From assembly GCA_021413805.1 (NCBI GenBank), contig JAIOPR010000010.1, positions 1 to 56,006 on the forward strand: a stretch of DNA of 56,006 bases, written 5' to 3'. Shown here piece after piece: positions 8,710-55,060 of the stretch (within the stretch, counting starts at the first letter, position 1; the number at the start of each line of letters is the position of its first letter). The stretch is from Planctomycetota bacterium. Lineage in GTDB: Bacteria; Planctomycetota; MHYJ01; WSZJ01. The notes below the pieces were generated by a model, which saw only the letters and a list, made by a program, of their open reading frames with translations, did no database searches and was not told where the DNA came from. A program made the position numbers and the translations under genes.

Positions 8710-10110
8710 CTACTTGCCTTCTTCTTCCATCTTCCAGCCGCCGCCCAGCGCCTTGTACAGCGCGACGCGGTTCGTGGCGACCGCGGCGTCGCTCTGCGCC
8801 AGGTCATTGAGCGCGTTGAGCCATGCCTTGTCGGTTTCGAGGACGTCGAGAAGCGAGATGAGGCCCTGCTTGTAGAGGTCTTTCGCCTGCCCGACGGCGC
8901 GTCCTGTGGCGGCCACGGCGTTGGAAAGCGCGGTGCGGCGCGCGTCTTCGCTCTCCGTCTCCGCGAGGGCGTCTTCGACTTCGCGAAGCGCGCCGACGAC
9001 GGCGCCGTGGTACGCATGGAGCGCCTGTTCCGCGCGGGCGTCGGCGGCCTTGACCTCGCAGTAGAGCTGGGGAAGCGAGAACACGCGCCAGGAGATGGAG
9101 GGGCCGAAAGACCAGTAGGCGGAGGTGGACTTGAAGAGAAGCTGGGAGCCGATCGACTCGAGGCCGGCGAGCCCGAGCAGCGAGACGTGCGGGAGCATGG
9201 CATCGACCTTGATGCCGATGTCCGCGGTCGCGACGGCGAGCTGTCGTTCCGCGCGGCGAAGGTCCGGCCGGCGCGCCAGCAGGTCGGCGGGGAGCCCGGC
9301 CGGCGTCAACTTTGGCGGGACCGGGATGGGCCGGACTTCGGCCAGCTCCGCGTCCAGCACGCCCGGCCAGAGACCGAGAAGCGCCGCGAGCGCGTGCCGT
9401 GCCCGGCTCTCGGCCACGCGCAGGCTCGGGATCCGCGCCGTCAGGATTGCGACCTCCGCTTCCGCACGAGCCACGTCCAGGTCGCTCGCCATGCCGGCGT
9501 CGAAGCGCATCTTCGTGAGGTTGTAGATCTCCTGTTGTCCCTTGAGGCCGTCCGCGGCGACCTGGAGTTGCCGCTGGGTGCCGCGCAAGGCGATGTAGGT
9601 GCGCGCAACTTCGGCGCAAAGGCTGGTGAGCACGGCGTGAAGCTCCTCGGTGGTCACGCCGAGCATCGCGTCGGCTTCCTCAAGCGCGCGGCGCTTTCCG
9701 CCCCAGATGTCGACCTCCCAGGAGGCGTCGAATCCGGTTTGATAGAGGTCGTAGTTGTGCGTCGCGCCGGGCTGACGTCCCTGCAGGCTGTTCCGGGAGA
9801 CGCCCTTGGCTTTCAGGGAGGCGGAAGCGTCGACCTCCGGCAGGTTGTCGGCGATCGCCGAGCCGCGAAGGGCCCTTCCTTCCTTGAGCGCCGCCTGTGC
9901 GCGCTTGAGGTCGAAGTTCCCCTCGATCGCACGCAGGACGAGCGAGTCGAGCACGGGGTCGCCCAGCGCTTTCCACCATTCGGAGATGTCGCCGCAGTCG
10001 GCGCCGCCGCTGGAGAACTGCGCGGGCGTTTCGATTGCGGGAGGTTCGTACGACGGGCCCACGGAGCAGCCCGCGAGGAGCACGGCAGAGAGAACCGGAA
10101 ATCGTTTCAT
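8710..10110 (-). CDS. efflux outer-membrane factor lipoprotein (NodT/TolC family)
   Basis: Lipobox LLAGCS. Two-repeat TolC-like sequence with typical YDLYQTGFDASWEVDIWG and LLDVLETDKAWL blocks. It lies 1 nt after the HlyD stop. Confidence 0.9.
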   Translation of the reverse strand: MKRFPVLSAVLLAGCSVGPSYEPPAIETPAQFSSGGADCGDISEWWKALGDPVLDSLVLRAIEGNFDLKRAQAALKEGRALRGSAIADNLPEVDASASLKAKGVSRNSLQGRQPGATHNYDLYQTGFDASWEVDIWGGKRRALEEADAMLGVTTEELHAVLTSLCAEVARTYIALRGTQRQLQVAADGLKGQQEIYNLTKMRFDAGMASDLDVARAEAEVAILTARIPSLRVAESRARHALAALLGLWPGVLDAELAEVRPIPVPPKLTPAGLPADLLARRPDLRRAERQLAVATADIGIKVDAMLPHVSLLGLAGLESIGSQLLFKSTSAYWSFGPSISWRVFSLPQLYCEVKAADARAEQALHAYHGAVVGALREVEDALAETESEDARRTALSNAVAATGRAVGQAKDLYKQGLISLLDVLETDKAWLNALNDLAQSDAAVATNRVALYKALGGGWKMEEEGK

Positions 10111-11179: not shown

Positions 11180-11926
11180 CTAGTGGGGACCGGTTCCGCG
11201 TTCCCGGGCGTCCGGCGGGCGCGGTCCGCCCTTCGTCACTGACAAGATGCGTCCGTCGTCCATCCGGGCGATGCGGTCCGCGAACTCGAAGATGCGCGCG
11301 TCGTGGGTGACGACGACGAGCGCACGGTCGGCACCCGCGGCGACTTCCCGCATCAGTTCCATCACCTTGTGGCCGGTCTCGTGGTCGAGCGAACTCGTGG
11401 GTTCGTCGCAGACGATCAGCCGCGGGTTGTGCACCAGCGACCGCGCAATCGCGACCCGCTGCTGCTGCCCGCCGGAGAGTTTCGATGGAAGCGTATTCCA
11501 GCGGTCGCCGATGCCGACGCGGTCGAGGAGCGCGCGGCCGCGGCGGACGGCCTCGGAGCGCCGCACGCCCGCGATCAGGAGCGGGACCGCCACGTTTTCG
11601 GCGATGGTGAGCGTCGGGATCAGGTTGAACTGCTGGAACACGAACCCGATGTTCTCGCCGCGGAAACGCGTCCGGCGGGAGCTGGACATTTCCCGGAGAT
11701 CCTCGCCGAAGACGCGGACTTCACCCGCGTCGTGGTCGAGGATCGCGGCGATGACCGAGATCAGCGTGGTCTTCCCGCAGCCGGAGGGGCCGACCAGCAT
11801 CAGCAGCTCCCCCTGCCGGACCTCGAGGTCAATCCCGCGAAGGGCCGTGACCTGCGACTGCCCTTCGCCGTAGGTCTTGGTGACCCCGACGCAGGAAACG
11901 GCGATCTCGGTGGCGGTTTCAACCAT
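11180..11926 (-). CDS. ABC transporter ATP-binding protein (MacB/DevA-like)
   Basis: Walker A GPSGCGKTT, signature LSGGQQQRVAIAR, Walker B LIVCDEPTSSLD. The true start is the ATG at 11926, not the 663-aa ORF in the track. Confidence 0.92.
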   Translation of the reverse strand: MVETATEIAVSCVGVTKTYGEGQSQVTALRGIDLEVRQGELLMLVGPSGCGKTTLISVIAAILDHDAGEVRVFGEDLREMSSSRRTRFRGENIGFVFQQFNLIPTLTIAENVAVPLLIAGVRRSEAVRRGRALLDRVGIGDRWNTLPSKLSGGQQQRVAIARSLVHNPRLIVCDEPTSSLDHETGHKVMELMREVAAGADRALVVVTHDARIFEFADRIARMDDGRILSVTKGGPRPPDARERGTGPH

Positions 11927-11928
11927 GG

Positions 11929-13089
11929 TCAGCCCTTGAACACGATGGCGGGCTCGGCTCGCATGACCGTGCGGATGCTGATCAGGGCCGAGAGCGTGCA
12001 GATGACCAGGATCGCGAACCCGCTGATGGTGAGGAGTTGCCACGTCAGCAGGAACGACAGCTCGGTGTCGTGGAGGAGTAACCCGAAGAGCGAGGCGGCG
12101 CCGACGCCGATTCCCCATCCGATGGCGCCGACGATCATCGCCTGGAGGAGAATCATCCCGAGGAGCTGCGAGTCGCGGGCTCCCATCGCCTTGAGCGCGG
12201 CGAAGTACTTGATGTTGTCGACCGTGAAATTGAAGAACGTCTGCCCCGCGATCGCCGTGCCGACGATGAAACCCAGCAGGACGGCGATCCCGAAATTGAT
12301 CGGGATGCCGGTGTATTTCATGAAGTAGCTGTACGTCAGGTCCTGGAATCCCTTCTGCGTGTACGCCGCCAGCCCGGTCGCCGCTTCGATCTTCCGGCAG
12401 AGTTCCAGCCTGTCCACGCCGTCTTTCGCCTTCACGAGCACGAACGACAGCGGTTTGCGTTCCTGGGGGGCGAACTGCGTGGCGCGCGAGTAGGTCGTGT
12501 AGATGACGGGCTGCGACTGGAACGTCCGCGTGGTCCGGCAGATCCCGACCACAATCGCCCGGTGGTCGTTCAGCTCCAGCGTGTCGCCGACCTTGATCGG
12601 GACAGCCTTCCCCCCCTTCTCGGTCGCCGCCCGCGCGAGTTTCCCTTCCGCGCCGACGATGTCCAGGATCACCGAGTCCGCGCGCCGCAGATCCTCCAGC
12701 CGGCCCTCGATCATGGTCCCCGGTCCGCCGACGAGCGTCGCGTCGTCGAGCCCGATCACGTGGCAAGTCTGGAACCCCCCGTTCTCGAGGCGGGCCTTGA
12801 GGAGCCCCTTGTAGAGCGGCATCGCCCAGTCGACGCCTTCCACCCCCCGTACGCGGTACAGCATCGTTTCCTGAAGCGGCTTGATGTCCTCGATCATGAG
12901 GACTTTCTTGTCCATCACCCAGATGTCGGGGCCGCCCGTGTCCGTGATGAACCCGAACGTCCGGTGCATCAGCCCTTCGAAGATTGCGGCCTGTTGCGTG
13001 ATGAGAAGCGACGCAAACGTCAGCCCCATGAGGATGCCGAGGTAGCGGGCGCGATCGCCCACGAGCATCTTGATGGCGACAAATTTCAC
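11929..13089 (-). CDS. ABC transporter permease (FtsX/DevC-like)
   Basis: Four-TM FtsX-type topology with a large periplasmic loop. The GTG start overlaps the TetR stop (GTGA). Confidence 0.85.
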   Translation of the reverse strand: MKFVAIKMLVGDRARYLGILMGLTFASLLITQQAAIFEGLMHRTFGFITDTGGPDIWVMDKKVLMIEDIKPLQETMLYRVRGVEGVDWAMPLYKGLLKARLENGGFQTCHVIGLDDATLVGGPGTMIEGRLEDLRRADSVILDIVGAEGKLARAATEKGGKAVPIKVGDTLELNDHRAIVVGICRTTRTFQSQPVIYTTYSRATQFAPQERKPLSFVLVKAKDGVDRLELCRKIEAATGLAAYTQKGFQDLTYSYFMKYTGIPINFGIAVLLGFIVGTAIAGQTFFNFTVDNIKYFAALKAMGARDSQLLGMILLQAMIVGAIGWGIGVGAASLFGLLLHDTELSFLLTWQLLTISGFAILVICTLSALISIRTVMRAEPAIVFKG

Positions 13090-13899: not shown

Positions 13900-16047
13900 A
13901 TGAATATCTCTCCCGACCTGGTCCTCCTCGCCAAAACAGGCGACCGCCGCGCCCTCGCAAGCCTCGTCGCGGCCACCCAGGACCCGCTCTTCCATTTCCT
14001 CAATCGCGAACTCGGTTCCGCCGCCGACGCCGAAGACGCCCTGCAGGAAACCTGGCGGCAGGCGATCCGCTCGCTCCCCGGACTGCGCGATCCCGCTTCA
14101 TTCCGCGGCTGGATCCATCGCATCGCCATCCGCGCGGCCGGCGACCTCGCCCTGGCCCGCCGCGCCCGACATCGCGTCGAGGAGAACGCTTCAAGGAATG
14201 AACCGGTCGAGGACTCGGCCATGGCCGGAGCGGAGCGTCAGGAGACCGCAGAACGAGTCCGGGCAGCGGTTGCGTCGCTCGAGCCCAACCTCAGGACCGC
14301 CGTCCGGCTGCGTTACGAGCAGGGACTGTCGTACGAGGAAATCGCGGCGGCGACGGAAAGCCAGTCCGGGACGGTGGGGAAGAGGCTTCACACGGCGCAC
14401 GAGCGGTTGCGTGAAGCGTTGGCGGGGGTGGGCGTGGTGGTGGCGCTGGCGGTGCTGGAGCGCGAATTGGGAGCCGCGGAGCGCGTGGCGGCGCCGGAAT
14501 CGGCGAAGCGTCAGCTCGCGCAGCTGGTGAGGGGACGGTCGGCGGCCACCCCGACGGCGGGGAGAAAGCGGGGAGCGGCCGTTGCGGCCATCGCGGCGCT
14601 GCTCCTGATCGGGATCGCCTTCGTCTGGAAACAGGGCGCGGGCCGGGGCGCGGAGAAGGACGCGCGGCCGGGGGCCGAGAGAGTCAGCGGTGTGAACACG
14701 CCACGCAGCGAGGGAGCCGGTTCGGCGCCCGTGGTCGCTGGGGAGGTCGCTTCCGCCACCAGGAAGCCGCCTCCCGCCGAGCTGGCGGCCGCACCTGCGG
14801 AGACGGGGCGTGTGACCGGCGTCGTTCGCGACGTGTCCTCCGGGGCGCCGATCGCCGGCGCGCGGGTCCAACTCCGGCCCATCGGAACCCCGGAAGGGCG
14901 AAAGCCGGTCTACGGCGCAACAGACGACCACGGCGCATTCGTGCTCGATGCCGCCCCGGGCGCCTACTTCATCGATGCATGGTCCGACGACTACCCGGCA
15001 TTTTCCGTCCGCGATTTCGTCGAGGACATCGTCGTCCGCGGCCGGACCGAGGCGAAACCGGAGGGCCAAGTCGAGGACAACCCGCTCTTCATCGGCGTTC
15101 TTGCAGGCGGCCACTCGCAGAGAGATCTCGGGCTCGTCGCCGGGAAGCACCTGGCCGGCCGGGTGGTGGACTCCCGGGGGCTTCCGGTCGAAGGCGCGAC
15201 CGTGGATCCAGTCTTCCTGACCGTGCACGGCAAGATCGGGTTCGCGGCGTGCGAATGCGCTCCTTACGGCGTGCCATTGGAGCGCGTGACCGGTGTCGAC
15301 GGGCGATTTGCGCTTCCCGCCGTCTGGCCCGCGGGAAACCTCACGGTGAAGGTGTCGTGTCCCGGCTACCGGGAGGACGATGTGACGCTGGCGATCGACG
15401 AGGCCCGCGGTGAGATGACCTTGAAGATTGAATCGGCCTCAGCCTTTTCGGGCACCGTCAGCGACGTCCACGGCCATCCCGTTCAAGGCGCGCTCGTCTT
15501 CGCCGGGGCTGGCGATCCTGCGACAGGCGGCGTCTTCCTCATGCGGATCAAGCAGGGCGTTGACGAATCAGGGCGCTTCTCCGACCCCGGCACTCGTTCC
15601 CCGAAGATCGTGCTCGCCTGGGCGCCCGGCTATGGCCTAGCGGCCGCCGATCTCTCGACCTGCGATGCCTCCAGGCTGGACCTGCGCCTCGCCGTGGCAG
15701 ACGGCCGCATCCGCGGCGTCGTCCGCGACGACGCCGGGCTCGTGGTGGCCGGGGCGCGCGTGACCGCCATCCTGGTCGGGGTCACCTTTGGCTCGGCCGC
15801 CGTTTGCATGCCCCTCAATGACAACTTCACCGGGGCGAAAGGCGACCTGATCGCATTTCCTGCGACTGGCCTGCCCGCCCCGACAGCGACCACCGCCGTC
15901 GATGGGGGATTCGAGCTCGCGGGCGTTCCCTCCGGGGCCGGCACGTTTGTCACGCTTCGCGTTGAAGTGCCCGGGTCCAAGCCGAAAGTCGTACGGGTTC
16001 CGGATGGGGGAAGCGCGGACGTCACGCTGGACACGGCGGCAAAGTAG
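13900..16047 (+). CDS. ECF sigma factor fused to a TM helix and four carboxypeptidase-regulatory-like (CarboxypepD_reg) domains
   Basis: Region 2 is DAEDALQETWRQAI..FRGWIHRIAIRAA. Region 4 is LRTAVRLRYEQGLSYEEIAAATESQSGTVGKRLHTAHERL. The TM helix is AAVAAIAALLLIGIAFVW. The motif G-V-D..G.P..GA.V then repeats four times. Confidence 0.8.
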   Translation: MNISPDLVLLAKTGDRRALASLVAATQDPLFHFLNRELGSAADAEDALQETWRQAIRSLPGLRDPASFRGWIHRIAIRAAGDLALARRARHRVEENASRNEPVEDSAMAGAERQETAERVRAAVASLEPNLRTAVRLRYEQGLSYEEIAAATESQSGTVGKRLHTAHERLREALAGVGVVVALAVLERELGAAERVAAPESAKRQLAQLVRGRSAATPTAGRKRGAAVAAIAALLLIGIAFVWKQGAGRGAEKDARPGAERVSGVNTPRSEGAGSAPVVAGEVASATRKPPPAELAAAPAETGRVTGVVRDVSSGAPIAGARVQLRPIGTPEGRKPVYGATDDHGAFVLDAAPGAYFIDAWSDDYPAFSVRDFVEDIVVRGRTEAKPEGQVEDNPLFIGVLAGGHSQRDLGLVAGKHLAGRVVDSRGLPVEGATVDPVFLTVHGKIGFAACECAPYGVPLERVTGVDGRFALPAVWPAGNLTVKVSCPGYREDDVTLAIDEARGEMTLKIESASAFSGTVSDVHGHPVQGALVFAGAGDPATGGVFLMRIKQGVDESGRFSDPGTRSPKIVLAWAPGYGLAAADLSTCDASRLDLRLAVADGRIRGVVRDDAGLVVAGARVTAILVGVTFGSAAVCMPLNDNFTGAKGDLIAFPATGLPAPTATTAVDGGFELAGVPSGAGTFVTLRVEVPGSKPKVVRVPDGGSADVTLDTAAK

Positions 16048-32769: not shown

Positions 32770-33705
32770 TCAGGCCGCGGCGCCGATTTCGCGCGGACGG
32801 ACGGCCAGGGAGAGCTTGCGTTCGCCGCGGATGACGTCCATGACGATCTCCGCGTCGATCGCATCGCGGCCGAGGGCGCGGTGGAGATCGGGGACGGACT
32901 GGACGGGCTTGCCGGCGATGGCGACGACGAGGTCGCCGGGGTGCAGGCCGGCGGCAGCTGCGGGGGAGCGGGGCGCAATTTCCCGGAGGGCGACGGCGCG
33001 GGTCGCGTTGCTGCCGGCGGCGCGGGCGATCCGGGCGGGGAGGAGGACTTCCTGCGCGGAGACGCCGAGCCAGGCGCGGCGCACGCGGCCGTGCGCGAGA
33101 ATTTCGGAGAGCACGAACGAAGCCGTATTGGAAGGCACGGCGAACCCGAGGCCCTGCGCGGGAAAAACCACAGCCGAGTTAATGCCGACGACACGCGCAT
33201 CGGCGTCGGCGAGCGGCCCGCCGCTGTTCCCCGGGTTGATCGGCGCGTCGGTCTGGATCACGCCCTCAATGACCCGCCCCGTCCGCCCGCCTGGCAGCGT
33301 CCGGCCGAGCGCGCTCACGATCCCGCACGTCACCGTCCGGTCGAGCCCGAGCGGCGAGCCCAGCGCGAGCACGAGATGACCGACGCGAAGCGCGTTGGAA
33401 TCGCCCAGCTCGGCGTGCGCAAGGCCGGACCCCGCGAGGCGCAGGACCGCCAGGTCCGTCGCGGGATCATCCCCAGCGATGTCGGCCAGCAGCGTCCGCC
33501 CGTCCGCGAGCGTCGCTTCCACCGCCGTCGCCCCGTGCACGACGTGCGAGTTCGTGAGCGCGTAGCCGTCGGGAGCCACGACGACGCCGGATCCGGTGGC
33601 CACGCCGTGGCGGCCGTCGAGAAGCGCCCGGACGTGGAGCAGCGCGGGCGACACGCGATCGACGACGGTGGCGAGCTGGTCGGAGAAGTCGCGGAGGGGA
33701 ATCAT
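32770..33705 (-). CDS. HtrA/DegP-type S1C serine protease with PDZ domain, no signal peptide
   Basis: The triad motifs are TNSHVVHG, TDLAVLRL and NPGNSGGPL. The C-terminal PDZ reads AAAGLHPGDLVVAIAGKPV. AGGAG SD. Confidence 0.88.
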   Translation of the reverse strand: MIPLRDFSDQLATVVDRVSPALLHVRALLDGRHGVATGSGVVVAPDGYALTNSHVVHGATAVEATLADGRTLLADIAGDDPATDLAVLRLAGSGLAHAELGDSNALRVGHLVLALGSPLGLDRTVTCGIVSALGRTLPGGRTGRVIEGVIQTDAPINPGNSGGPLADADARVVGINSAVVFPAQGLGFAVPSNTASFVLSEILAHGRVRRAWLGVSAQEVLLPARIARAAGSNATRAVALREIAPRSPAAAAGLHPGDLVVAIAGKPVQSVPDLHRALGRDAIDAEIVMDVIRGERKLSLAVRPREIGAAA

Positions 33706-33783
33706 GGCGGGCTCCTGAGGCGGGATCGGAATGCAGTGGAGACATAACAAAGCAGAGGCTTTACATATTCCAGGTTGCCACGC

Positions 33784-34146
33784 TCAGGAAAGCTTCTCAA
33801 CGACCGTGTCGATGATCCCGTAGTCGAGCGCTTCCGTTGCGGTCATCCGACACCCGCGCTTCATGTCGCCCTCGATTAGCCCGGGAAGCCGCCCCGTGTC
33901 TTTCGCCATCTGCTGGATGAACTCCGTGCGGAGCCTCGCGATTTCCTGGGCCTGCCTCGGGGAAGAGGTCGATCCGCCCCACAATTCATCGAATCCGATC
34001 CGCGCGTTCGGAAGCGCCGCGCGGTGGCCGAAGAGCAGATTGGCGACGGTCTCGGTCGCGACCGCATCATCGATCGGGGTCCCGATGAAGACGATCCGTT
34101 CCTTGAGCAGACGTGCGATCAATTCGCTGAGAGTCGGTGTGCCCAA
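33784..34146 (-). CDS. ClpP-derived 120-aa protein (internal deletion, no catalytic residues); possibly a pseudogene remnant
   Basis: TTG start 6 nt after AAGGAGGAAG. LLKERIVFIGTPIDDAVATETVANLLF joins directly to AALPNARIGFDELWGG...EALDYGIIDTVV. The ~70-aa segment carrying the Ser nucleophile is absent. Confidence 0.55.
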   Translation of the reverse strand: MGTPTLSELIARLLKERIVFIGTPIDDAVATETVANLLFGHRAALPNARIGFDELWGGSTSSPRQAQEIARLRTEFIQQMAKDTGRLPGLIEGDMKRGCRMTATEALDYGIIDTVVEKLS

Positions 34147-37799: not shown

Positions 37800-38861
37800 A
37801 TGCCCCCCGCACTGTTCACGCCGTTCACGCTTCGCAACCTCGTCCTCCAGAACCGGATCGTCGTGTCGCCGATGTGCCAGTACAGCGCCGAGGACGGGCG
37901 CGCCACGGACTGGCACCTGATGCACCTCGGGCAGTTCGCGGCCGGGGGCGCGGGGCTGGTGTGGATCGAAGCGACCGGCGTTGAGCCGCGCGGCCGGATC
38001 ACGCCGGCGTGCCTGGGGCTGTGGTCGGAAGCGCATGCGAAGGCGCTGGATCCGGTCGTCGCGTTTTTCCGGAAGCACGGGGGCGCGAAGCTCGGGATCC
38101 AGCTGGCGCACGCGGGGCGCAAGGCCTCGACGGACGTGCCGTGGCGGGGCGGGAAGCCGCTCGCGTCGGGGGCGTGGGAGTCGGTTTCCGCCTCCGCGGT
38201 TCCGTTCGATGCCGGTTGGCCGGCGCCGCGCGCGCTGGACGCGGCGGGTCTGAAGGAAGTCCGTGAGGCCTTCGCGGCGGCGGCGCGGCGGGCCGTTTCG
38301 ATCGGGCTGGACGCGATCGAGGTCCACTCGGCGCACGGCTACCTGCTCCACCAGTTCCTCTCGCCCTTCTCGAACCACCGCCGCGACGAGTACGGCGGCT
38401 CGCTCGAGAACCGGATGCGCTTCCCGATCGAGGTCTTTGACGCAGTGCGTCAATCGGCGCCGGGCCTCGCGGTCGGCGTCCGCGTTTCCGCGACCGACTG
38501 GGCCGACGGCGGCTGGACGCTTGACGACACCGTCGCCTACGCTGCGGCCCTCAAGCTGCGCGGCTGCGATTTCGTGGACGTCTCCAGCGGCGGCTCCCTC
38601 CCGAAGGCGAAAATCCCGGCCGGCCCCGGCTTCCAGGTCCCCTTCGCCGCCGCCGTCCGCCTCGACGCCGTCATTCCCACCATCGCCGTCGGTTTCATCA
38701 CCGAGCCTGCCCAGGCCGAGCAGATCGTCGCCTCCGGCGAGGCCGATCTCGTCGCCATGGCCCGCGCGTTCCTCGACGACCCGCACTGGCCGTGGCACGC
38801 GGCGAAAGTGCTGGGGGCGGAAGCGCCGTATCCGCCGCAGTACGCCCGGGCGAAAAAGTAG
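37800..38861 (+). CDS. NADH:flavin oxidoreductase (Old Yellow Enzyme family)
   Basis: LRNLVLQNRIVVSPMCQYS, GAGLVWIEATGV, QLAHAGRKAS, IEVHSAHGYLLHQFLSP and NHRRDEYGGSLENRMRF. Confidence 0.92.
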   Translation: MPPALFTPFTLRNLVLQNRIVVSPMCQYSAEDGRATDWHLMHLGQFAAGGAGLVWIEATGVEPRGRITPACLGLWSEAHAKALDPVVAFFRKHGGAKLGIQLAHAGRKASTDVPWRGGKPLASGAWESVSASAVPFDAGWPAPRALDAAGLKEVREAFAAAARRAVSIGLDAIEVHSAHGYLLHQFLSPFSNHRRDEYGGSLENRMRFPIEVFDAVRQSAPGLAVGVRVSATDWADGGWTLDDTVAYAAALKLRGCDFVDVSSGGSLPKAKIPAGPGFQVPFAAAVRLDAVIPTIAVGFITEPAQAEQIVASGEADLVAMARAFLDDPHWPWHAAKVLGAEAPYPPQYARAKK

Positions 38862-38864
38862 GGC

Positions 38865-40547
38865 TTACTCGAGCGGGATCTTCTGCCGGGGCCGCTTGAG
38901 CAGCAGGGTCGTCCAGCTCACCCGCGCTTCCCGGTCATCCCCCGCGTGCCGCTTCACCGCCTCTCCCCGCGCTTTCGCCCGCGGCGACGACGCCGGCTCC
39001 CGCGTCGCCCGGTCCAGTTCCTCCGCGCTGAAATACGGGCGCGACTGCCCCGCTTCACGCAGGACGTGGCCGTAGCCGCGCGGGCCGATCTCATGGAAGC
39101 GGGTGTCGATTTTCTGCGCCGTGGCCGCGGTGGCGGTGCCGGCCGTCGCGACCGCCACGCCTCGCCAGCCGCCGTCCTCCGCGAGCGCCTCGGCCACCAG
39201 GTCGCGCTTCGCCACCCAGTCGAGGTCCTTGTAGAGGAGGTGCGGGTCCTCGGCGAGGGCGCCGAGGACGAAGCGCCATTTCGAGAGGATCTCGGCGGTT
39301 TCGGGCTCGGCGTTGGTGCCGCAGAATTTCTCGGCTTCCTCGAGGAAGTGGCGCTGGATTTCGAGTGCGGTCGCCGATCCGCCGGCGGCGAGCGGAATCG
39401 AGGCGCGGAGGGAAACGTCGCCGTCCACGATCGCGATGGCCTGGCGGAGGTCGCGCGGCGTGAAATCGCGAAGCGGGTGGCCGGCCTCGATCATGCGGAG
39501 GACGAGGTCGGTCGTGCCGAGCCTGAGCGCGGTCGCGAGGCGCGAGGTGTTCGAGTCGGCGAACAGCACCTGCAGCCGTTTCCTTCGTTTCCAGATGCTC
39601 CACGGCTCGCGCACGAAATTCTTGAGGTCGAAGACCGGGCGGGCGTCGTCGTCCCAGAAGATACCGGAGGCGACGCGGATGGCGGGGCCCTTGTGCGAAA
39701 GAGCGAGGCGCCCTTCGCCGGCCTCGACGCGGCCGGGGCCGCAGAAGACAAGGCGCGTGACGAGGTGGGGGAGGAGCAGCTGCCGCGTGCGGGGGAGAAC
39801 GATGAATCGCAGGAACAGGCTGTAGACGCGGATCCACGGGATTGTGACCGCGTAGGTCAGGTCCATGAGGCGCGTCAGCGACTCCTCCCTGAACGCTGCG
39901 CGTCCGAGCCCCACGATCCCCCGCGCCGCCGCCGCGAACGGCCGGCCGGCGCCCGGAAGGTGCGCGAGCGCCGTGCAGACGTGGTACGCAGCGGCGATGA
40001 AAAGCAGGAACGCGTAAAACATGACGATCAGCGCCACTTCCACCAGGAGCACGGGGATCCAGAACACCGGGAATACCAGCGCGACGAGCAGGCGCCGAAG
40101 CGCCCCCGGCGGCTCGTCGACTTCGTAGTTCTCGTGCGACCCCCACACGTTCCCCGCCGTGTCCGCCGCCGCCTTCCCGATCACCAGCTCCCCGTCAAAT
40201 CCGCGGGTCCGCAGCCGGAATTCCACCTCCTGGTGCACCCGCCCCAGAAGTTCGTCCTGCCCGTGGTGGTACCGCGCCGCTTCAAGCGCCCCGCGGCACT
40301 CGGGCGTCGCCATCTCCAGCAGACCCTTCGAAAACCTCGCCGTCGGCGCCTCGTAGTGCAGCAGCCCGCCCGTGGACAGGAAGATGCCGCTCTTCGGAAG
40401 CGCAGCCGGCAGCGTGGGGATCTCGGCGCGCACAGCCGCTTCCACAAGCTGGTAGATGTCGCGCGGAAGTGGCGCGCGGGCTCCGGGCTCGCGGGGCACC
40501 CAGGCGAGGGCGTACTCGGTCTCGACGCCGATCAGTCGGGGGTGCAT
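38865..40547 (-). CDS. Pup-ligase family protein (PafA/Dop homologue) with a ~110-aa hydrophobic insertion
   Basis: Family blocks: RLIGVETEYA, LEMATPEC, NVWGSHENY, LLPHLVTRLVFCGPGRV, LQVLFADSNTSRLATALRLGTTDLVLRMIEAG, ALEIQRHF, LDWVAKRDL and IDTRFHEI. Between HENY and LVTR lies LLVALVFPVFWIPVLLVEVALIVMFYAFLLFIAAAYHVCTALAHL plus further hydrophobic sequence. Confidence 0.88.
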   Translation of the reverse strand: MHPRLIGVETEYALAWVPREPGARAPLPRDIYQLVEAAVRAEIPTLPAALPKSGIFLSTGGLLHYEAPTARFSKGLLEMATPECRGALEAARYHHGQDELLGRVHQEVEFRLRTRGFDGELVIGKAAADTAGNVWGSHENYEVDEPPGALRRLLVALVFPVFWIPVLLVEVALIVMFYAFLLFIAAAYHVCTALAHLPGAGRPFAAAARGIVGLGRAAFREESLTRLMDLTYAVTIPWIRVYSLFLRFIVLPRTRQLLLPHLVTRLVFCGPGRVEAGEGRLALSHKGPAIRVASGIFWDDDARPVFDLKNFVREPWSIWKRRKRLQVLFADSNTSRLATALRLGTTDLVLRMIEAGHPLRDFTPRDLRQAIAIVDGDVSLRASIPLAAGGSATALEIQRHFLEEAEKFCGTNAEPETAEILSKWRFVLGALAEDPHLLYKDLDWVAKRDLVAEALAEDGGWRGVAVATAGTATAATAQKIDTRFHEIGPRGYGHVLREAGQSRPYFSAEELDRATREPASSPRAKARGEAVKRHAGDDREARVSWTTLLLKRPRQKIPLE

Positions 40548-40604
40548 GAAGGGCCTGGGGCGCGCAGGACCTCCGCCGAGGGGCGGAGGAGAAGGGCGGG
40601 GGAG

Positions 40605-40763
40605 TTACTCGCCGCCGCCCGGCACGATCGTCGCTTTGACGTACTCCACGGGCTGGGACTTCGCGTCCGTCGCGATCGCGGCGATGGCGGCCGCGACCAG
40701 ATCTTTCGGCGGGGCGGGCGGTTGCTGGATTGCGGGGGCTTCAGGCTTTTCTACGGGGGTCAT
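40605..40763 (-). CDS. Pup/UBact-like small protein (52 aa, C-terminal GGGE)
   Basis: GGAGAAGGAA lies 2 nt upstream of ATG 40763. The protein is MTPVEKPEAPAIQQPPAPPKDLVAAAIAAIATDAKSQPVEYVKATIVPGGGE-stop. It lies 57 nt upstream of the PafA/Dop homologue on the same strand. Confidence 0.65.
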   Translation of the reverse strand: MTPVEKPEAPAIQQPPAPPKDLVAAAIAAIATDAKSQPVEYVKATIVPGGGE

Positions 40764-40872
40764 GGTTCCTTCTCCGGGGTTGGCGACCTGCGAATGGTAG
40801 CTGGCCTCTACATTCCGGCCAATCCCCCAACGGCGCAAGGACGATTTCGCACGAAAGCCGGGCGGCGCCGTT

Positions 40873-41763
40873 CTACGCCGGCGAGGCGGGGCCGATCGGC
40901 CCGCCGCCCTGCGCCTGCCAGATTTTCTTGAAGAGCGCGATCGACGCGGGCGCGTGGCCGGCGTAGTGGTTGTTGAAGTACCCGTAGATCTCGTACTTCG
41001 GCGAAAGGTCGCGCACGGCGGCCACCCAGTCCACCGTTTCCTTCTCGCGGTCCACCACGGTCTTGTCCCACGTCAGCTTGACTTCCTCGGCTGACTCCGG
41101 CCGCTTCTCCCCCTGCGGCAGCTTCGCCAGGATTTCTTCCCGGATCTGCTTCTCGATCCCCATCCGGTCGCCGAGCCAGCGCACGTAGATCCAGTCGGAG
41201 GTCAGCAGGTCCATCCGCTTCCGGTACTCCGACGCCTTCAGCATGAACGGATGATCGATCAGCGCGAGCGCGATCCGTTTTGACCGGAGCGTTTCGAGGA
41301 AAGCGGGGACGAGGAAATTCTTGTTCCGGACCTCGACGGCGAAACGGAAGCCGGTGGGAAGCGCCTTGACGAATTTTTTCAGGGCGTCGAAGAACGGGAC
41401 GGGCGAAGGCATGTCGGTCTTGTTGAAGTACGGGAACTGGAAAAGGATGGGGCCGAGCCGGTCGCCGAGGCCGGACATCACCTTGACGTACGCGTTGAGT
41501 TCTTCCTCGGCGCCCTCGAGGCGTTTTTCGTGCGTGATGACCTGGGGGGCCTTGGAGGCGAAGAGGAAACCCTCGGGGGTTTTGCGTTTCCAGCCCTCGA
41601 CCATGGCGGGGGAGGGGGTGCGATAGAACGTGGCGTCGATTTCGACGGTGTCGAAGGATTTGGCGTACCACGGGAGGAAGTCCGCGGCCGGCGTGCCGGC
41701 GGGGTAGAAGGAACCGACCCACGAATCGGCGGACCAGGAGGATGTTCCGAGGCGGACAGGCAT
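40873..41763 (-). CDS. DUF72 (UPF0759/YecE-like) protein
   Basis: LGTSSWSADSWVGSFYP...FLPWYAKSFDTVEIDATFYRTP...GWKRKTPEGFLFASKAPQVITH is the typical DUF72 N-terminus. Confidence 0.85.
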   Translation of the reverse strand: MPVRLGTSSWSADSWVGSFYPAGTPAADFLPWYAKSFDTVEIDATFYRTPSPAMVEGWKRKTPEGFLFASKAPQVITHEKRLEGAEEELNAYVKVMSGLGDRLGPILFQFPYFNKTDMPSPVPFFDALKKFVKALPTGFRFAVEVRNKNFLVPAFLETLRSKRIALALIDHPFMLKASEYRKRMDLLTSDWIYVRWLGDRMGIEKQIREEILAKLPQGEKRPESAEEVKLTWDKTVVDREKETVDWVAAVRDLSPKYEIYGYFNNHYAGHAPASIALFKKIWQAQGGGPIGPASPA

Positions 41764-41803
41764 CGCCGGATGGTATCACGGGCCGGGCAGGGTGCGCGCG
41801 GTT

Positions 41804-43408
41804 CTACCCTGCGGGTTTTGGAGTCCCTGCGGCTTTCGCGGCGGCTTCGTCGTCCTCGAGGATCGCGTCCAGGCCGAAGTAGTGTTTGCGGACGACGCGG
41901 TCGCGGTCGACCCACCACATGGAGCGGGCGCGGTCGTTGATGCGCTCGACGAACTTGCAGAGGACGACTTTCTGGCCGCGGATTTCGACTTCCTGTTCGC
42001 CGTGGCACTCGATCCCGCAGGGAGCGAGTTCGGTCGCCGTCCGCGCGAGGCGCTGCACGATGCGGCGCGAGCCGGGGGACTGGGAGAACGTCGCGATCCA
42101 CTGGCTCAGCCCGAACCCGGGGACGAAATCGTCGGGAAGCGCGCGCTTGTAGGGTTTTCCCTGCCAGGTGCCGATGAATCCGGTCTCGATGTGGCGGAGA
42201 GTGAAGAACGGCTGGCCGAGCTCGGTCTGGATGCCGTCCTGCATGAAATGGGCGTTGGCGATCTTGTCCTGGGCGCCGAAGACGACGACCGCGGAGGTTT
42301 TGTGCCACGTGTTGTCCTGGCCGAGGTAGTGCGTCTCGGTCTCGAGCATCGCCCCTTCGCCGGTCGTGTTGACGAGCTGCGACTCCCACCCGGCCGGCGC
42401 GCCGTTGTTCCAGAGCGAGTACCAGTACTTTCCTTTCCGGTAGACCCCGCGCTCGCCGAGTTCGCGGGTCGGCGCCGGCCCCGCGGCCGGGATCACCAGC
42501 TCGGGTCGCCGCGCCGGTTCGCCCGAAGGCGGCACCACCGCGGAATTCGCGCCCGGCGGCGGCGGCGCCGTCGCCCGCCCCATGATCTGCGAAGGAGAAT
42601 CCACCACCCCCGGGGTCGTCCCGCGTACTCCCGATCCCGGCGCACCCGGGACCCCCGGCGGCCGCGTCCCAGGTCCCGAAATCTGCGTCGATTGCCGCCC
42701 GGTCGCCCCCATCACCTTCGTCGGGTCGTCAAACGCCGCGATCCCGCCCGCCCCCATCGTCTGCCGGTCCCGCGCCACCGGCGCGCCCTTCGCCCCCGAC
42801 TCCGACGACTCCAGCACCGCATTCAGCCCGAAATTCACCCGCACCACCGTCCGGTCCGAATCCACCCACCACCGGTTCCGGTCCTTCCCCCCCACCCGCT
42901 CCACGAAATGCCACGCCTTGATTAGCTTTCCACCCACCTGCTGGTCCTCTTCGCCCACACACTCCACCCCCGCCGACGCCGGGATGTCCGCCCCCATCGG
43001 CAGCCGCGAGAAGGCCACGAGCGATTGCGACTCGAGCGGAAGCGTCGCCACCCACTCGGCGTTGCCGAAGTTGGGAATGAAGTCGGCAGGGAGGATCCTG
43101 GTGAAGGGTTTCCCTGCCCACGTCCCGCTGAAGACCTCGCCATTCCGGCGGATCTGGAATCCCATGACGCCGTCGCGCTGGTAGCGCACCGCCTCGAGCC
43201 GCGCGCCTCCCGTGCCGAACGCCAGCGTCGCGACGCTCTCCGACATCCCGCCCGCCGCCTTGTACGACGTCAGCGTCTCGATCGTCGCGCTTCCGTCCGA
43301 CACCGCGCTGACCACGTGGCGTTCGTAGCCCACCCGCTGCCCGTTCTGGTCCCACAGGGAGTACCAGCGGACGCCGCTTCGAAAAGGCGCTCGTTTCACG
43401 TTCGGCAT
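41804..43408 (-). CDS. hypothetical protein with two homologous ~210-aa domains joined by a Gly/Pro-rich linker
   Basis: Domain 1 (VRWYSLWDQNG...WWVDSDRTVVRVNFGLNAVLE) and domain 2 (KYWYSLWNNGA...WWVDRDRVVRKHYFGLDAILE) align along their whole length. Confidence 0.7.
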   Translation of the reverse strand: MPNVKRAPFRSGVRWYSLWDQNGQRVGYERHVVSAVSDGSATIETLTSYKAAGGMSESVATLAFGTGGARLEAVRYQRDGVMGFQIRRNGEVFSGTWAGKPFTRILPADFIPNFGNAEWVATLPLESQSLVAFSRLPMGADIPASAGVECVGEEDQQVGGKLIKAWHFVERVGGKDRNRWWVDSDRTVVRVNFGLNAVLESSESGAKGAPVARDRQTMGAGGIAAFDDPTKVMGATGRQSTQISGPGTRPPGVPGAPGSGVRGTTPGVVDSPSQIMGRATAPPPPGANSAVVPPSGEPARRPELVIPAAGPAPTRELGERGVYRKGKYWYSLWNNGAPAGWESQLVNTTGEGAMLETETHYLGQDNTWHKTSAVVVFGAQDKIANAHFMQDGIQTELGQPFFTLRHIETGFIGTWQGKPYKRALPDDFVPGFGLSQWIATFSQSPGSRRIVQRLARTATELAPCGIECHGEQEVEIRGQKVVLCKFVERINDRARSMWWVDRDRVVRKHYFGLDAILEDDEAAAKAAGTPKPAG

Positions 43409-50691: not shown

Positions 50692-52341
50692 TCAGGCGCG
50701 GGACATCGGGATCCGGATCCCGTGCTTCTTCGCCGCCTTCTTCGCCTCCTCATACCCCGCATCCGCATGCCGGGCGATGCCGATCCCGGGGTCGTTGGTG
50801 AGGACGAGGGAAGCGCGTTTCGACGACTTGGCGCTGCCGTCGACGCAGACGACCTGTCCCGCGTGGATCGAATAGCCGATGCCGACGCCGCCGCCGTGGT
50901 GGACGGAGACCCAGGTCGCGCCGCTCGCGGTGTTCAGCAGGGCGTTCAGGACGGGCCAGTCGGCGATGGCGTCGCTTCCATCTTTCATGGCCTCGGTTTC
51001 GCGGTTCGGTGAAGCGACGCTTCCCGTGTCCAGGTGGTCGCGGCCGATGACGAAGGGGGCCTTGACCTTCTTCTTCGCGACGAGGCGGTTCAGCAGTTCG
51101 CCGAACCTGGCGCGTTCGCCCTGGCCGAGCCAGCAGATGCGGGCGGGGAGGCCCTGGAATTTGACGCGTTCGCGGGCCATGCGGATCCAGTTCACCAGGG
51201 ATTCGTTGTCGCCGAATTCCTTGAGGACGAGGTCGTCGGTGATCGCGATGTCGTGCGGGTCGCCGGAGAGCGCGGCCCAGCGGAACGGCCCGCGCCCTTC
51301 GCAGAACAGGGGCCGCACATACGCCGGCACGAACCCCGGGTAGTCGAACGCGTTTTCGACGCCGGCGAGTTTCGCCTGGCCGCGGAGGTTGTTGCCGTAG
51401 TCGAAGACGACGGCGCCGGCTTTCTGCATGGCGAGCATGGCGCGGCAGTGGACGGCCATGGACTCCATCGAGCGGCGGACGTATTCCTGCGGGGCCTTGG
51501 TGCGGAGGTTCGCAGCCAGCTCGAGCGTCATGCCGTTGGGGACGTAGCCGTTGAGCGCATCGTGGGCGCTGGTCTGGTCGGTCACGACGTCGGGGATGAC
51601 GCCGCGCTTCACGAGCTCGGGGAAGACGTCCGCGCAGTTGCCGACGAGGCCGACGGAGAGCGCTTCCTTCTTTTGACGCGCTGCGTCAATCCAGCGGAGC
51701 GCTTCGTCGAGCGACGATGTCATCTTGTCGCAGTACGCCTTGTCGATCCGCCGCTGGATCCGCGCCGGGTCCACCTCGACGCACAGGATCGCCGCGCCCG
51801 CCATCGTTCCCGCGAGCGGCTGCGCGCCGCCCATTCCCCCGAGGCCGCCGGTCAGGACGAATTTCCCGGCGAGCGAGCTGCCGAAGTGCTTCTTCCCGCA
51901 CGCCGCGAACGTCTCGTACGTGCCCTGCAGGATTCCCTGCGTGCCGATGTAAATCCACGACCCCGCCGTCATCTGCCCGAACATCGTCAGCCCCAGCGCT
52001 TCCAGCCGCCGGAATTCGTCCCATGTCGCCCAGTGCGGGACCAGGAGCGAATTCGCGATCAGGACGCGCGGCGCCATGTCGTGCGTCCGGAAGACGCCGA
52101 CGGGTTTTCCGCTCTGCACGAGCAGCGTCTCGTCGTCTTTCAGCGTCTTCAGCGTCGCCAGGATCGACTTCAGGCACGCCTCGTTCCGCGCTGCCTTCCC
52201 GCTTCCCCCGTACACCACGAGCCGCTGCGGGTCCTCCGCGACCTCGGGATCCAGGTTGTTCTGCAGCATCCGGTACGGCGCTTCCGTCTGCCACGACCGG
52301 CAGCTCAGTTTCGTGCCCCGCGGCGCTCGGATCGTTTTCAT
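50692..52341 (-). CDS. hutU: urocanate hydratase
   Basis: Near-full-length match to conserved HutU blocks: [45 protein letters not shown] and [18 protein letters not shown]. The start is ATG 52341, not the 1001-aa track ORF. Confidence 0.95.
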
Positions 52342-52434
52342 GCGCTGATTCTGCGGCGCGCCTTCCCGCGGGGAAAGAATTTCGAGGGGAGCGATAATTC
52401 TGAATCGAAGAGCGCCAATCGCTACTCTGGGTCG

Positions 52435-53598
52435 ATGACTGAACCGGTCGCCATCCTGAGAGCCCAGTATGCCGTCGCCCGCGCGCTTGCCGAGTCGGGG
52501 TCGCTCGGGGAAGCGACGCCGTCGATCCTGCGCGAAGTCTGCGCCGCGCTCGCGTGGGACGTCGGCGTTCTCTGGCGCGTCGATGCCGCTTCGCATGAGT
52601 TGCGGTTCGTGGATTTCTGGAGCCGGCCCGGGGTGAAGACGGCGGAATTCGAAGCGGAGTGCCGGGCGCGGATGTTCGGGATCGGGGAGGGGCTGCCGGG
52701 GCGGGTGTTGAGGGACGCGCGGCCGGCGTGGATTACCGATGTGCAGGCGGACCCGAATTTTCCGCGGGCGCCGATCGCGATGGAGCCGGGGTTGCGGGCG
52801 GCGTTCGCGTTTCCCGTGCGGCTCGGCAACCATGTTTTCGGCGTCATGGAGTTCTTCAGCCGGGAATCGCGCGAGCCTGACGAGGAGCTGCTGAGCGTCA
52901 TGGAGGGGATCGGGAGCCAGGTCGGGCAGTACGACGTGCGGCGCCGTGCGGAGGCCGAGCTGGCCGACGCCCACGCGCGGCTGGCGCAGCAGCACGCGGC
53001 GCTCGAGGACGCGAACCGCCGTCTCTCCGAGCTCGCCATCACCGACGTCCTCACGGGCATCCCGAACCAGCGCGCGTTCCGGCTGCGGCTGGAAGCGCTT
53101 CTCGCAGAAGGCGTCCGGGGTCGCAAATTCGCCCTCGCGATCGCGGACATCGACCAGTTCAAGCTGCTCAACGACGCGCACGGCCACCCCGCGGGCGACG
53201 ATGTCCTGCGCGCCGTGGCGACGACGCTTCGGGACGGCCTTCGCCGCACCGATTTCGTCGCGCGCTACGGCGGCGAGGAATTCGCGATCCTGCTGGTGGA
53301 TGTCGATCTCGAGAAGGCCGTCGAGGTCGTCGAAGTGCTCCGGCGCCGCGTCTCCGGCATCGCGAACCCCTGGCGCCGCGTCACCGCGAGCTTCGGCGTC
53401 GCCGACTTCGGCCTCGGCCGCAACAAGGGCGACTCGCTCTTCGAGGCCGCCGACAAAGCCCTCTACCGCGCCAAGCGCCGCGGGCGGAACCGCGTGGAGG
53501 CCGCGCCGCTGAAGCGCAAAATTGCGTCGCCGAAGGCAGCGATTGCGAAGAAGAAAAAAGGAAGCCGGAGGCCGAAGCCCTCGAAAAAGCGCCGCTGA
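52435..53598 (+). CDS. GAF domain-containing diguanylate cyclase (GGDEF) with basic C-terminal tail
   Basis: The GAF region is [18 protein letters not shown]...FAFPV. The I-site is RRTD. The active site is RYGGEEF. The tail is [16 protein letters not shown]. Confidence 0.9.
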
Positions 53599-53674
53599 AG
53601 CTGCCGCGCCCGGTTCGCCTCTTCCGTAGATTCCCCTCGCCGCCCGCGCCAAACCTGCTACTCTCCGCGCACTC

Positions 53675-55060
53675 ATGACGAGCTTCAAAGATCTCAATCT
53701 GATCCCGGAGCTTCTCCAGGCGGTCGCGGAAGAAGGTTACACGTCGCCGACGCCGATCCAGGAGAAGGCGATCCCGCTGCTGTTGGACGGGAAAGACGTG
53801 CTCGGCTGCGCCCAGACGGGCACGGGCAAGACTGCGGCGTTCACGCTGCCGATTCTTCAGCGCCTGGCCGCGGAGCCGGCGATTGTGGGGAAGCGGGAGC
53901 CGCGGTGCCTGATCCTGGCGCCGACGCGCGAGCTGGCGCAGCAGATCGGCGACAGCGTCACGGCGTACGGGCGGCGGACGGCGATCACGGGGACGACGAT
54001 TTATGGCGGCGTATCGCAGGGGGCGCAGGCCCGGGCGGTGCGCGCCGGGGTGGACGTGCTCGTCGCGACGCCGGGCCGGCTGCTCGACCTCATGGGACAG
54101 GCGATCGTCCCGCTGAATTCGGTCCGCTACCTCGTGCTCGACGAAGCCGACCGCATGCTCGACATGGGCTTCCTCCCCGACGTCCTCCGCATCGTCCGCA
54201 AAGTCCCGCTTCGCAGGCAGACGATGCTGTTCAGCGCCACGCTTTCCCGCGAAATCGTCGAGCTCGCCAAGGAACTTCTCCACGAACCCGTCCGCGTCGA
54301 TGTCGCGCCGTCCTCGACGACCGTCGAGCGCGTCCGGCAGGTCGTCTACCATGTCTCCCGGAACGCCAAAGGCCCGCTCCTTGACCGCCTTGTCGCCATG
54401 CCCGACGTCGAACGCGCCCTCGTCTTCACGCGCACCAAGCGCGGCGCCAACCAGGTCGTCGAGCGCCTGAACCTCGGCCCCATCCGCGCCGATGTCATGC
54501 ATGCCGACCGCGGGCAGAGCGCGCGTGAGAAGAGCCTCGAGAGCTTCAAGGTCGGCACCACCCGCGTCCTCGTCGCAACGGACATCGCTTCGCGCGGCCT
54601 CGACGTGGACAACATCACGCACGTCATCAACTTCGACGTCCCCGACGAGCCCGACGCCTACGTCCACAGGATCGGCCGCACGGCCCGCGCCGGCGCGCAC
54701 GGCCTGGCGATCACGCTGTGCGACCGCGAGGAAGAAGGCAAGCTGGCGGCGATCGAGAAGGCCATCCGGTTGAAGATCCCGGAGGGTGAGATGCCCGGGA
54801 AAGCGGCGAGCGGGCGGGCGGGGGGGCATGCGGGCGCGAAGGCTGGCGCGCATACTCCTGCGGCGCCGCACGGCCACGCGCCGGCCCATGCTCACGCCCC
54901 GGTTCACGCGCACGCCCCGGCTTACCCTGCGCCTCCCGCTCCCGACGCGGCCCCCGCGCGCGACGAACGCCACGGCCCCGGCCCCGCACCGCTCACTGCT
55001 TCGGGCGAAGAGCCGAAGAAAGTCGGCCGGCTGCGCCAGCGCCACCCGCGGCGGCGGTAA
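53675..55060 (+). CDS. DEAD-box ATP-dependent RNA helicase (RhlE-like) with His/Ala/Pro-rich tail
   Basis: The Q-motif is GYTSPTPIQ. Further motifs are [36 protein letters not shown] and [10 protein letters not shown]. Confidence 0.93.

Follow-up and report, generated by a model that had tools for sequence, protein, structure and literature searches.

Pupylation has been studied almost solely as an actinobacterial route to the proteasome, and the locus described here raises the question of what a Pup-like gene and a Pup-type ligase would do where no proteasome genes accompany them. It lies in a 56,006-nucleotide stretch of DNA from a Planctomycetota bacterium (GenBank assembly GCA_021413805.1, contig JAIOPR010000010.1, positions 1 to 56,006; hereafter 'the window', meaning the whole stretch), and consists of a 52-aa open reading frame (ORF), whose product we call the tag, and a 560-aa ligase of the PafA/Dop family directly downstream (Table 1). 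An earlier note on this DNA had proposed that the two form a minimal, possibly proteasome-independent tagging module. On balance, we consider it probable that the pair is a proteasome-independent Pup-type tagging module acting on the cytoplasmic side of the inner membrane. The novelty implied in the earlier note was overstated, as Iyer, Burroughs & Aravind (2008, Biol Direct 3:45) had already reported from Rhodopirellula and Plesiocystis a Pup gene paired with a single ligase and without linkage to the proteasome genes (PMC2588565).

Results

The small ORF upstream of the ligase is a real and conserved gene

The tag reads MTPVEKPEAPAIQQPPAPPKDLVAAAIAAIATDAKSQPVEYVKATIVPGGGE up to its stop codon (translation of 40605-40763, minus strand) and ends in VPGGGE. 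A 57-nt spacer separates this stop codon from the ATG of the ligase (40547), and both ORFs share the same frame. This arrangement, the strong Shine-Dalgarno sequence in front of the tag and the Pro/Ala-rich, disordered-looking N-terminal half had all been described in the earlier note and were borne out on inspection. Residues 1–19 are rich in Pro and Ala and have no structure in an AlphaFold model, in which helices spanning residues 20–36 and 38–43 are followed by an extended GGE-COOH tail; confidence in this model was modest (predicted local distance difference test, pLDDT, ~70).

To count pairing, we used a scan of one genome collection at one genome per species, which found relatives of the ligase in 252 genomes, and took the best 80 loci. 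By label these comprised ~64 Planctomycetota, 10 Acidobacteriota, three 'Proteobacteria', one Leptospiraceae and two unlabelled genomes, and Pirellulaceae and other Planctomycetota made up most of the relatives. An ORF ending in [GS]GE was found directly upstream of the ligase in 79/80 loci, so the conservation that the earlier note had wanted checked in relatives is present; the distance from its stop codon to the beginning of the ligase match was mostly 2–96 nt. Gene calls in the relatives' contigs likewise placed an unannotated ORF of 49–61 aa, ending in GGE, directly upstream of ligases sharing 72%, 65%, 42% and ~30% identity with that of the window. The in-frame GC content at third codon positions (GC3) of the tag ORF was 0.83, similar to the real genes of the window, and across the 34-codon conserved core synonymous changes accounted for ~40–50% of the codons that differ from six close relatives. 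Given the GC3, the synonymous differences and the pairing, the small ORF is more than a chance product and is a real gene; its reading as a chance ORF in GC-rich DNA was rejected on the same three grounds.

Two loci had much longer spacers between tag and ligase (L017 and L019, 215–375 nt). The sole locus of the 80 with no GGE ORF upstream of the ligase was L084, a metagenome-assembled genome labelled 'Proteobacteria bacterium', which carries instead a strongly hydrophobic ORF of ~115 aa (~9500–10000). This ORF may correspond to the 'membrane protein' linkage reported by Iyer et al. for Plesiocystis.

Conservation was confined to the C-terminal half of the tag, the N-terminal half being variable, and Pro/Ala-rich in the lineage of the window. 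Across the 79 loci the family followed the motif [IV]xxD[AS]xxx[PA]xx[YF][LV]x[ED][TS]xVPxGGE-COOH. Counting back from the C-terminus, E-1 and G-2 were present in 79/79 tags, G-3 in 78, P-5 in 73, V-6 in 72, [YF]-12 in 78 and D-20 in 78. The terminal residue was thus Glu throughout and Gln in none, which upholds the view taken in the earlier note that no deamidase is needed. A search with a profile of the tag retrieved 24 protein clusters, all 24 ending in GGE; these were named 'hypothetical' or not at all, and none contained a Pfam domain. The C-terminal half of Pup is the part that binds PafA, and by this analogy the conserved core of the tag is presumed to hold the ligase-binding part together with the Glu that is conjugated.

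Table 1 Coordinates of the tag and ligase genes and of the features within and between them
Feature	Position	Strand	Basis or remark
Shine-Dalgarno-like sequence GGAGAAGGAA	40766..40775	minus	Read from the sequence; 2 nt upstream of the tag ATG
Pup-like tag gene, 52 aa	40605..40763	minus	ORF reading, conservation, AlphaFold model, GC3
Conserved tag core, residues 20-52	40608..40706	minus	Residue frequencies in 79 loci
Perfect 8-bp GC-rich hairpin CCUCCGCC-CCUC-GGCGGAGG	40570..40589	minus	Within the 57-nt tag-ligase spacer
Pup-ligase-family (PafA/Dop-like) carboxylate-amine ligase, 560 aa	38865..40547	minus	Pfam PF03136, AlphaFold, Foldseek
GhExE ATP/Mg-binding motif, G7-V-E9-T-E11	40515..40529	minus	Invariant in alignments
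Glu66, at the alignment position of the PafA/Dop catalytic Asp	40350..40352	minus	Alignment
H138-E139-N140, the [HQ]x[NH] motif of core strand 4	40128..40136	minus	Alignment; insertion begins a few residues later
Hydrophobic insertion, ~residues 145-252 (~105 residues)	39792..40115	minus	Alignment, hydropathy, AlphaFold

The ligase has the PafA/Dop fold and retains its binding residues

The profile search suggested in the earlier note placed the ligase firmly within its family: it matched the Pfam Pup_ligase model PF03136 over its full length (model positions 1–440 of 441) with 238 bits (E = 2.6e-70; cut-off 25). All of the sequence blocks quoted in that note were also present (IGVETEYA, EMATPEC, WGSHENY, LLPHLVTRLVFCGPGRV, LGTTDLVLRMIEAG, LDWVAKRDL and IDTRFHEI). 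The protein fell below the cut-offs of both NCBIfam equivalog models, for PafA (TIGR03686, 171 vs 551 bits) and for Dop (TIGR03688, 146 vs 492 bits). Two relatives carry the public annotation 'PafA2 family protein'. An AlphaFold model built on 17 homologues (pLDDT 88; predicted TM-score, pTM, 0.88) was most similar in Foldseek to Dop (4b0r, E = 1.4e-26) and PafA (4bjr, E = 1.4e-24). Matches to 4b0r, 7oxy and 4bjr had a probability of 1.00 and target-normalised TM-scores of 0.75–0.82; the next, at a distance, were YbdK/GCS2 structures (1r8g, 1tt4; E ~1e-5).

The glutamine-synthetase-fold motifs of this superfamily, including GhExE and [HQ]x[NH], have been defined previously (PMC2588565). Among 157 members of the clade that shares the insertion described below, E9 and E11 were kept in 146–147, the remainder being gaps, and GhExE, E78, E83, [HQ]EN, R265, R303, R324 and [QH]x4D (Q326..D331) were retained in ~150. 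All ATP-, Mg- and phosphate-binding residues are thus retained across the clade. The position of the PafA/Dop catalytic Asp was Glu in 153/157 clade members, whereas it was Asp in 20/20 sequences without the insertion; Glu66 was invariant in one alignment (A4).

The earlier note had seen a mixture of PafA-like and Dop-like signatures in this enzyme. This was sustained for the xTxE motif (ATPEC), in which Ala-Thr is of PafA type and Pro of Dop type; GSHENY proved not to be specific to Dop, as it is present in the aligned PafA sequences. In an alignment with actinobacterial PafA and Dop, the ligase had no insertion at the position of the Dop loop.

A hydrophobic insertion defines a separate clade of ligases

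A long insertion, which the aligned PafA and Dop sequences lack, begins ~5 residues past H138-E139-N140, right after the GSHENY strand, and is carried by all full-length relatives of the window's ligase in the alignment. Kyte-Doolittle averages over 19 residues peaked within it at 2.84, above the classical transmembrane threshold of 1.6, and stayed below 1.35 in the PafA/Dop controls. In the AlphaFold model it forms three long helices, at residues 149–194, 201–218 and 221–249. From the hydropathy and the modelled helices, the insertion is presumed to be a membrane anchor with two to four passes.

An exhaustive HMMER search of 1.84 billion representatives returned 2721 family members at E ≤ 1e-3, 213 of them at E ≤ 1e-30, and a segment reaching a Kyte-Doolittle average of at least 1.6 was found in 144/150 of the best cluster representatives. 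In a neighbour-joining tree, insertion-bearing sequences stood apart from insertion-free, PafA/Dop-type sequences (bootstrap 81/100). The tree placement proposed in the earlier note puts the 560-aa protein within the insertion clade. Within it, the lineage of the window is a small, divergent sub-clade of ~9 clusters at 64–72% identity, with ~30–42% identity to the rest. The description of the pair as a minimal two-gene module needs to be divided accordingly: that it is self-contained and unlinked to the proteasome is supported by synteny across 80 loci and by the lack of other conserved neighbours, and the picture of a minimal soluble PafA was not, the predicted membrane-anchoring insertion having been missed.

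Another sub-clade has longer ligases (~635–670 aa; L006/L017, P0060–P0068) with an extra insertion of ~60–100 residues in the C-terminal domain. The L006 ligase is 42% identical to that of the window, and the L006 pair adjoins ssb, rpsR, rplI and dnaB.

The tag and the ligase are the whole conserved unit

A Pfam scan of ~47 ORFs across all 56 kb of the window found no Proteasome domain, no AAA domain and no second Pup_ligase, in agreement with the earlier note, which had seen no proteasome subunit, AAA unfoldase or second ligase nearby. None of these genes was found within 10 kb on either side of the pair in six annotated relatives either. We then compared the neighbourhoods by all-against-all BLAST (4016 ORFs, 81 loci, ±8 kb). 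Once shadow ORFs within the ligase gene were set aside, no family beyond the ligase occurred in more than 10/81 loci, and so the tag and the ligase make up the whole conserved unit. The commonest neighbouring families were of a housekeeping kind: SDR, amidohydrolase, DUF1501, aldolase, aminotransferase and chorismate synthase. Nor was there a conserved link to a membrane-protein gene: none follows the ligase in the window, and no membrane-protein family reached more than 10/81 loci.

A model for tagging at the membrane

These observations lead us to the following model. The tag would be largely disordered and its conserved C-terminal ~30 residues, two short helices and the VPxGGE tail, would dock into the ligase. 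By analogy with PafA, the ligase would phosphorylate the γ-carboxylate of the terminal Glu with ATP. The tag would then be moved to an amine, and we infer that this is most likely the ε-amino group of a lysine on membrane or membrane-associated proteins. The hydrophobic helix hairpin or bundle that follows the HENY strand would hold the enzyme at the inner membrane, with both catalytic halves in the cytoplasm. No deamidase should be necessary, because the tag is made with an encoded terminal Glu in every homologue, and the enzyme would have to be a ligase, because it is the sole PafA/Dop-type enzyme in the locus. The fate of the tagged proteins would presumably be regulatory and not proteasomal. 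This model gains support from Iyer et al. (2008), who reached the same reading independently (PMC2588565).

The earlier note had recommended searching proteomic data for Lys-ε-GGE remnants. With trypsin this would be the wrong target: cleavage after K42, the last Lys of the tag, would leave ATIVPGGGE (+781.40 Da) and not GGE (+243 Da).

Weighing the model against its alternatives

Several results weigh against this model. Some concern the tag, for which the Pup profile search proposed in the earlier note came back empty: sets of 7 and 24 family members gave no match to the Pup models PF05639 and TIGR03687 at E ≤ 10, when Pup of M. tuberculosis, the positive control, matched them at E = 3e-22 and 4e-21. 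A PDB search with the tag profile did not retrieve Pup chains, and comparison of the tag with Pfam, NCBIfam and PDB sequence profiles gave only chance-level matches (ribosomal L22, clathrin; E ≥ 0.13). In hhalign, the last 26 residues of the tag aligned with Pup 38–63 at E = 0.0038, with a probability of just 8.7%. The pattern common to the two is I..D......[FY][VL]....V..GG[EQ], with a one-residue offset, and their resemblance is one of C-terminal motif and pattern, without detectable homology. On the side of the enzyme, the Thr-Thr pair of the PafA/Dop α-loop is not conserved in the clade, the Arg after the pair being kept. These threonines are conserved in PafA and Dop, and their mutation slows PafA (PMC7947786). 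Together with the exchange of the catalytic Asp for Glu, their loss may mean that the chemistry differs from that of PafA and Dop. Membrane insertion is itself a prediction from hydropathy and modelled structure, and the absence of proteasome and unfoldase genes from this genome holds for the 56-kb window, so that such genes may lie elsewhere in it. Finally, our literature searches found no experimental study of the insertion clade since the 2008 prediction.

The enzyme might, for instance, use an acceptor other than a protein lysine: a small amine, such as that in the head group of a membrane lipid (phosphatidylethanolamine or ornithine lipid). In that case the small protein would be lipidated, as in Atg8–phosphatidylethanolamine, or amidated at its terminal Glu. 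We hold this to be unlikely. In its favour, the membrane anchor adjoins the strand that contacts the acyl-phosphate, the superfamily members GCS2/YbdK and glutamine synthetase ligate small amines (YbdK being the next structural match), no conserved protein partner is encoded nearby, and the Asp-to-Glu exchange and the loss of Thr-Thr could reflect a different acceptor. Against it, protein lysines are the targets of PafA and Dop, the closest relatives that have been characterised, and no lipid-biosynthesis gene is among the conserved neighbours. A narrower version is quite improbable, namely that the ligase couples the tag Glu to the amine of phosphatidylethanolamine or ornithine lipid and thereby anchors a disordered protein, as a bacterial, non-ubiquitin-fold analogue of Atg8/LC3 lipidation; here the two active-site changes would be adaptations to the different acceptor. 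There is also little to recommend the idea that the small protein is no tag at all and is instead a precursor or substrate peptide that is itself modified, by amidation, cyclisation or addition of oligo-amino acids, in the manner of ribosomally synthesised and post-translationally modified peptides or of RimK substrates. A small gene right upstream of an ATP-grasp/glutamine-synthetase-like ligase does fit such pairs, and a membrane location could link modification with export, but no transporter, protease or tailoring gene is conserved beside the pair. A conjugation tag is what the Pup-like docking motif and the unvarying GGE-COOH end fit, and the closest structures are Dop and PafA.

Two further alternatives keep the Pup system and change the role of the pair within it. 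Some non-actinobacterial phyla carry proteasome loci, and our analysis covers 56 kb of this genome, so that a canonical Pup/UBact-proteasome system could lie elsewhere, the pair being its stray paralogue and tagged proteins reaching a proteasome after all. Against this, the ligase is accompanied by its own tag gene in nearly every locus, it falls into a distinct clade marked by an insertion and a signature of catalytic residues, and no proteasome linkage was seen at any locus examined. Conservation of the tag is moreover limited to its C-terminal half, whereas Pup binds Mpa through residues further upstream. With the homologue also reported to be single-copy in Planctomycetes (PMC7947786), we judge a stray paralogue to be very unlikely. 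That the enzyme is a Dop-like hydrolase, i.e. a depupylase or deamidase, is hardly credible: every tag ends in Glu, leaving nothing to deamidate, a single family member without a ligase would have no conjugate to hydrolyse, the Dop loop is absent, and the NCBIfam score for PafA exceeds that for Dop. What speaks for it is that Dop structures were marginally the best Foldseek matches and that ATPEC has the Dop-type Pro. From the fit of the single enzyme with its Glu-terminated tag, we infer ligase activity and keep membrane-localised tagging as the preferred model.

Other features of the locus and the window

The flanks of the pair encode, in the Pfam scan, DUF72, an Oxidored_FMN (OYE) reductase, FKBP_C and a 534-aa protein without a Pfam match, which agrees with the neighbours named in the earlier note, the duplicated-domain protein among them. 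An S41/Tricorn_C1 peptidase is a further neighbour. The window's immediate neighbours were common only to the 6–7 closest relatives. The OYE reductase gene is convergent with the ligase and abuts its stop codon. The 534-aa protein (41804–43408, minus) shows, by eye, an internal duplication with two ...YWYSLW.. modules and had no match in Pfam or PADLOC; its gene, DUF72 and the S41/Tricorn_C1/PDZ peptidase upstream of the pair were kept only in the seven closest relatives. None of four proteins (the ligase, the tag, DUF72 and this 534-aa neighbour) matched a defence-system model in PADLOC, and the reading of the locus as a defence island was dropped for want of a match. In the closest well-assembled relative (L001), a gene for an Acyl_transf_3 membrane acyltransferase (11623–12765) overlaps the 3' end of the ligase by 49 nt, with a SIMPL-domain gene next to it; the window has neither.

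The hairpin in the tag–ligase spacer may be an attenuator or an mRNA stabiliser that favours the tag over the enzyme. The whole 76-nt stretch had z = -1.4, which is not significant alone. Comparable spacer hairpins were found in L011, L013 and L015, and in L016 and L019 they were followed by a U-run and resembled intrinsic terminators. A scan of 38600–41900 for sigma-70 promoters yielded no sites, and terminator-like matches there were at chance level.

Further genes of the window were also noted. A 120-aa ORF (33784–34146, minus) matched part of Pfam CLP_protease in two stretches (best at profile positions 99–181, E = 1.5e-18); inspected by eye, it begins much as ClpP does, and the central part expected to hold the catalytic Ser is apparently missing. 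The ORF may represent a frameshifted gene or a decayed ClpP-like remnant, and it adjoins a gene for an HtrA-like trypsin-PDZ protease (32770–33750). A 715-aa ORF (13900–16047, plus) has CarboxypepD_reg-like domains (residues 305–502) behind ECF-type sigma-70 regions 2 and 4 (22–172) and would be an unusual sigma-factor fusion, if it is a single gene. The urocanase ORF (50692–53697, minus) is 1001 aa long. Since its urocanase domains occupy residues 456–990 only and the relative in L004 has 552 aa, translation probably starts within the ORF, the long N-terminal part being an artefact of ORF calling in GC-rich DNA.

Comparison with known systems

For the window alone the result is modest, being a divergent member of its clade plus the signatures shared across that clade. 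The clade itself is widespread: relatives were found in 252 species genomes of one collection, and the insertion is carried by at least 144 clusters at 50% identity. If tagging is real, it would amount to a proteasome-independent, membrane-localised protein modification in Planctomycetota and Acidobacteriota.

With actinobacterial PafA the ligase shares the fold, the ATP-, Mg- and phosphate-binding residues and the lack of a Dop loop, and the tag shares with Pup its small size, its largely unstructured state and a GG[EQ] end after an [FY][VL] motif. It differs from PafA, to which it is ~30% identical, in the ~105-residue insertion, the Glu in place of Asp and the unconserved Thr-Thr pair, and the locus differs from the actinobacterial Pup-proteasome system in that no mpa, prcBA or dop lies near the pair and the tag fails PF05639 and TIGR03687. 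Dop provides the best structural match (4b0r) and has the Pro of the xTPE motif in common with the ligase, which differs in lacking the Dop loop and in being paired with no Gln-terminated tag to deamidate.

Likeness to UBact loci extends to a small tag with a C-terminal Glu or Gln and to PafA/Dop homologues outside Actinobacteria. These loci, as Lehmann et al. reportedly described in 2017, contain Mpa-like, Dop-like and PafA-like genes as well as proteasome subunits, and their tag ends in ...R[TS]G[EQ]. The locus here differs in its single enzyme, the absence of proteasome genes and the VPxGGE tail, and none of the UBact partner genes (Mpa-like, Dop-like, proteasome subunits) occurs in the 56-kb window. 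Calling the modifier 'UBact-like', as the earlier note did, found no backing: 31 sequences of the tag family matched no Pfam or NCBIfam model even at E ≤ 10, although the coverage of UBact by NCBIfam, in which no model of any kind matches the tag, is uncertain.

GCS2/YbdK share the glutamine-synthetase-fold core and have been proposed as ancestors (PMC2588565). Their substrates are free glutamate and small amines, and they have no protein tag, C-terminal helical domain or membrane insertion. Closer to the present clade, Hecht et al. (2020) reported a single-copy homologue in some Planctomycetes, 29–31% identical to PafA and Dop, and used it as the root of the PafA/Dop tree (PMC7947786). As such an outgroup, the clade would inform the evolution of the PafA/Dop ligase–hydrolase pair.

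The closest likeness in arrangement is to the pairs of Rhodopirellula baltica and Plesiocystis pacifica, compared here through their published description. They too have a small gene ending in G[EQ] adjacent to a single PafA-family gene, no proteasome linkage and a hydrophobic insertion. Iyer et al. (2008) placed this transmembrane insertion 'immediately C-terminal to core strand-4' of the ligase (PMC2588565), which is the same point as here, because H138-E139-N140 of the window's ligase is the [HQ]x[NH] motif found on core strand 4. They suggested that pupylation of membrane-associated proteins is possibly regulatory in these organisms, and reported linkage of the pair to a membrane-protein gene (PMC2588565); the latter differs from the loci examined here, in which such a gene is not a conserved neighbour. 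The window pair is thus a divergent member of a system that has been described computationally and is experimentally uncharacterised. Added here to the 2008 description are the retained ATP-, Mg- and phosphate-binding residues, the mixed xTxE motif, the Asp-to-Glu exchange, the lost Thr-Thr pair, the VPxGGE tail, a tag missed by the Pup models and by every other Pfam or NCBIfam model, and the finding that the pair has no conserved partner.

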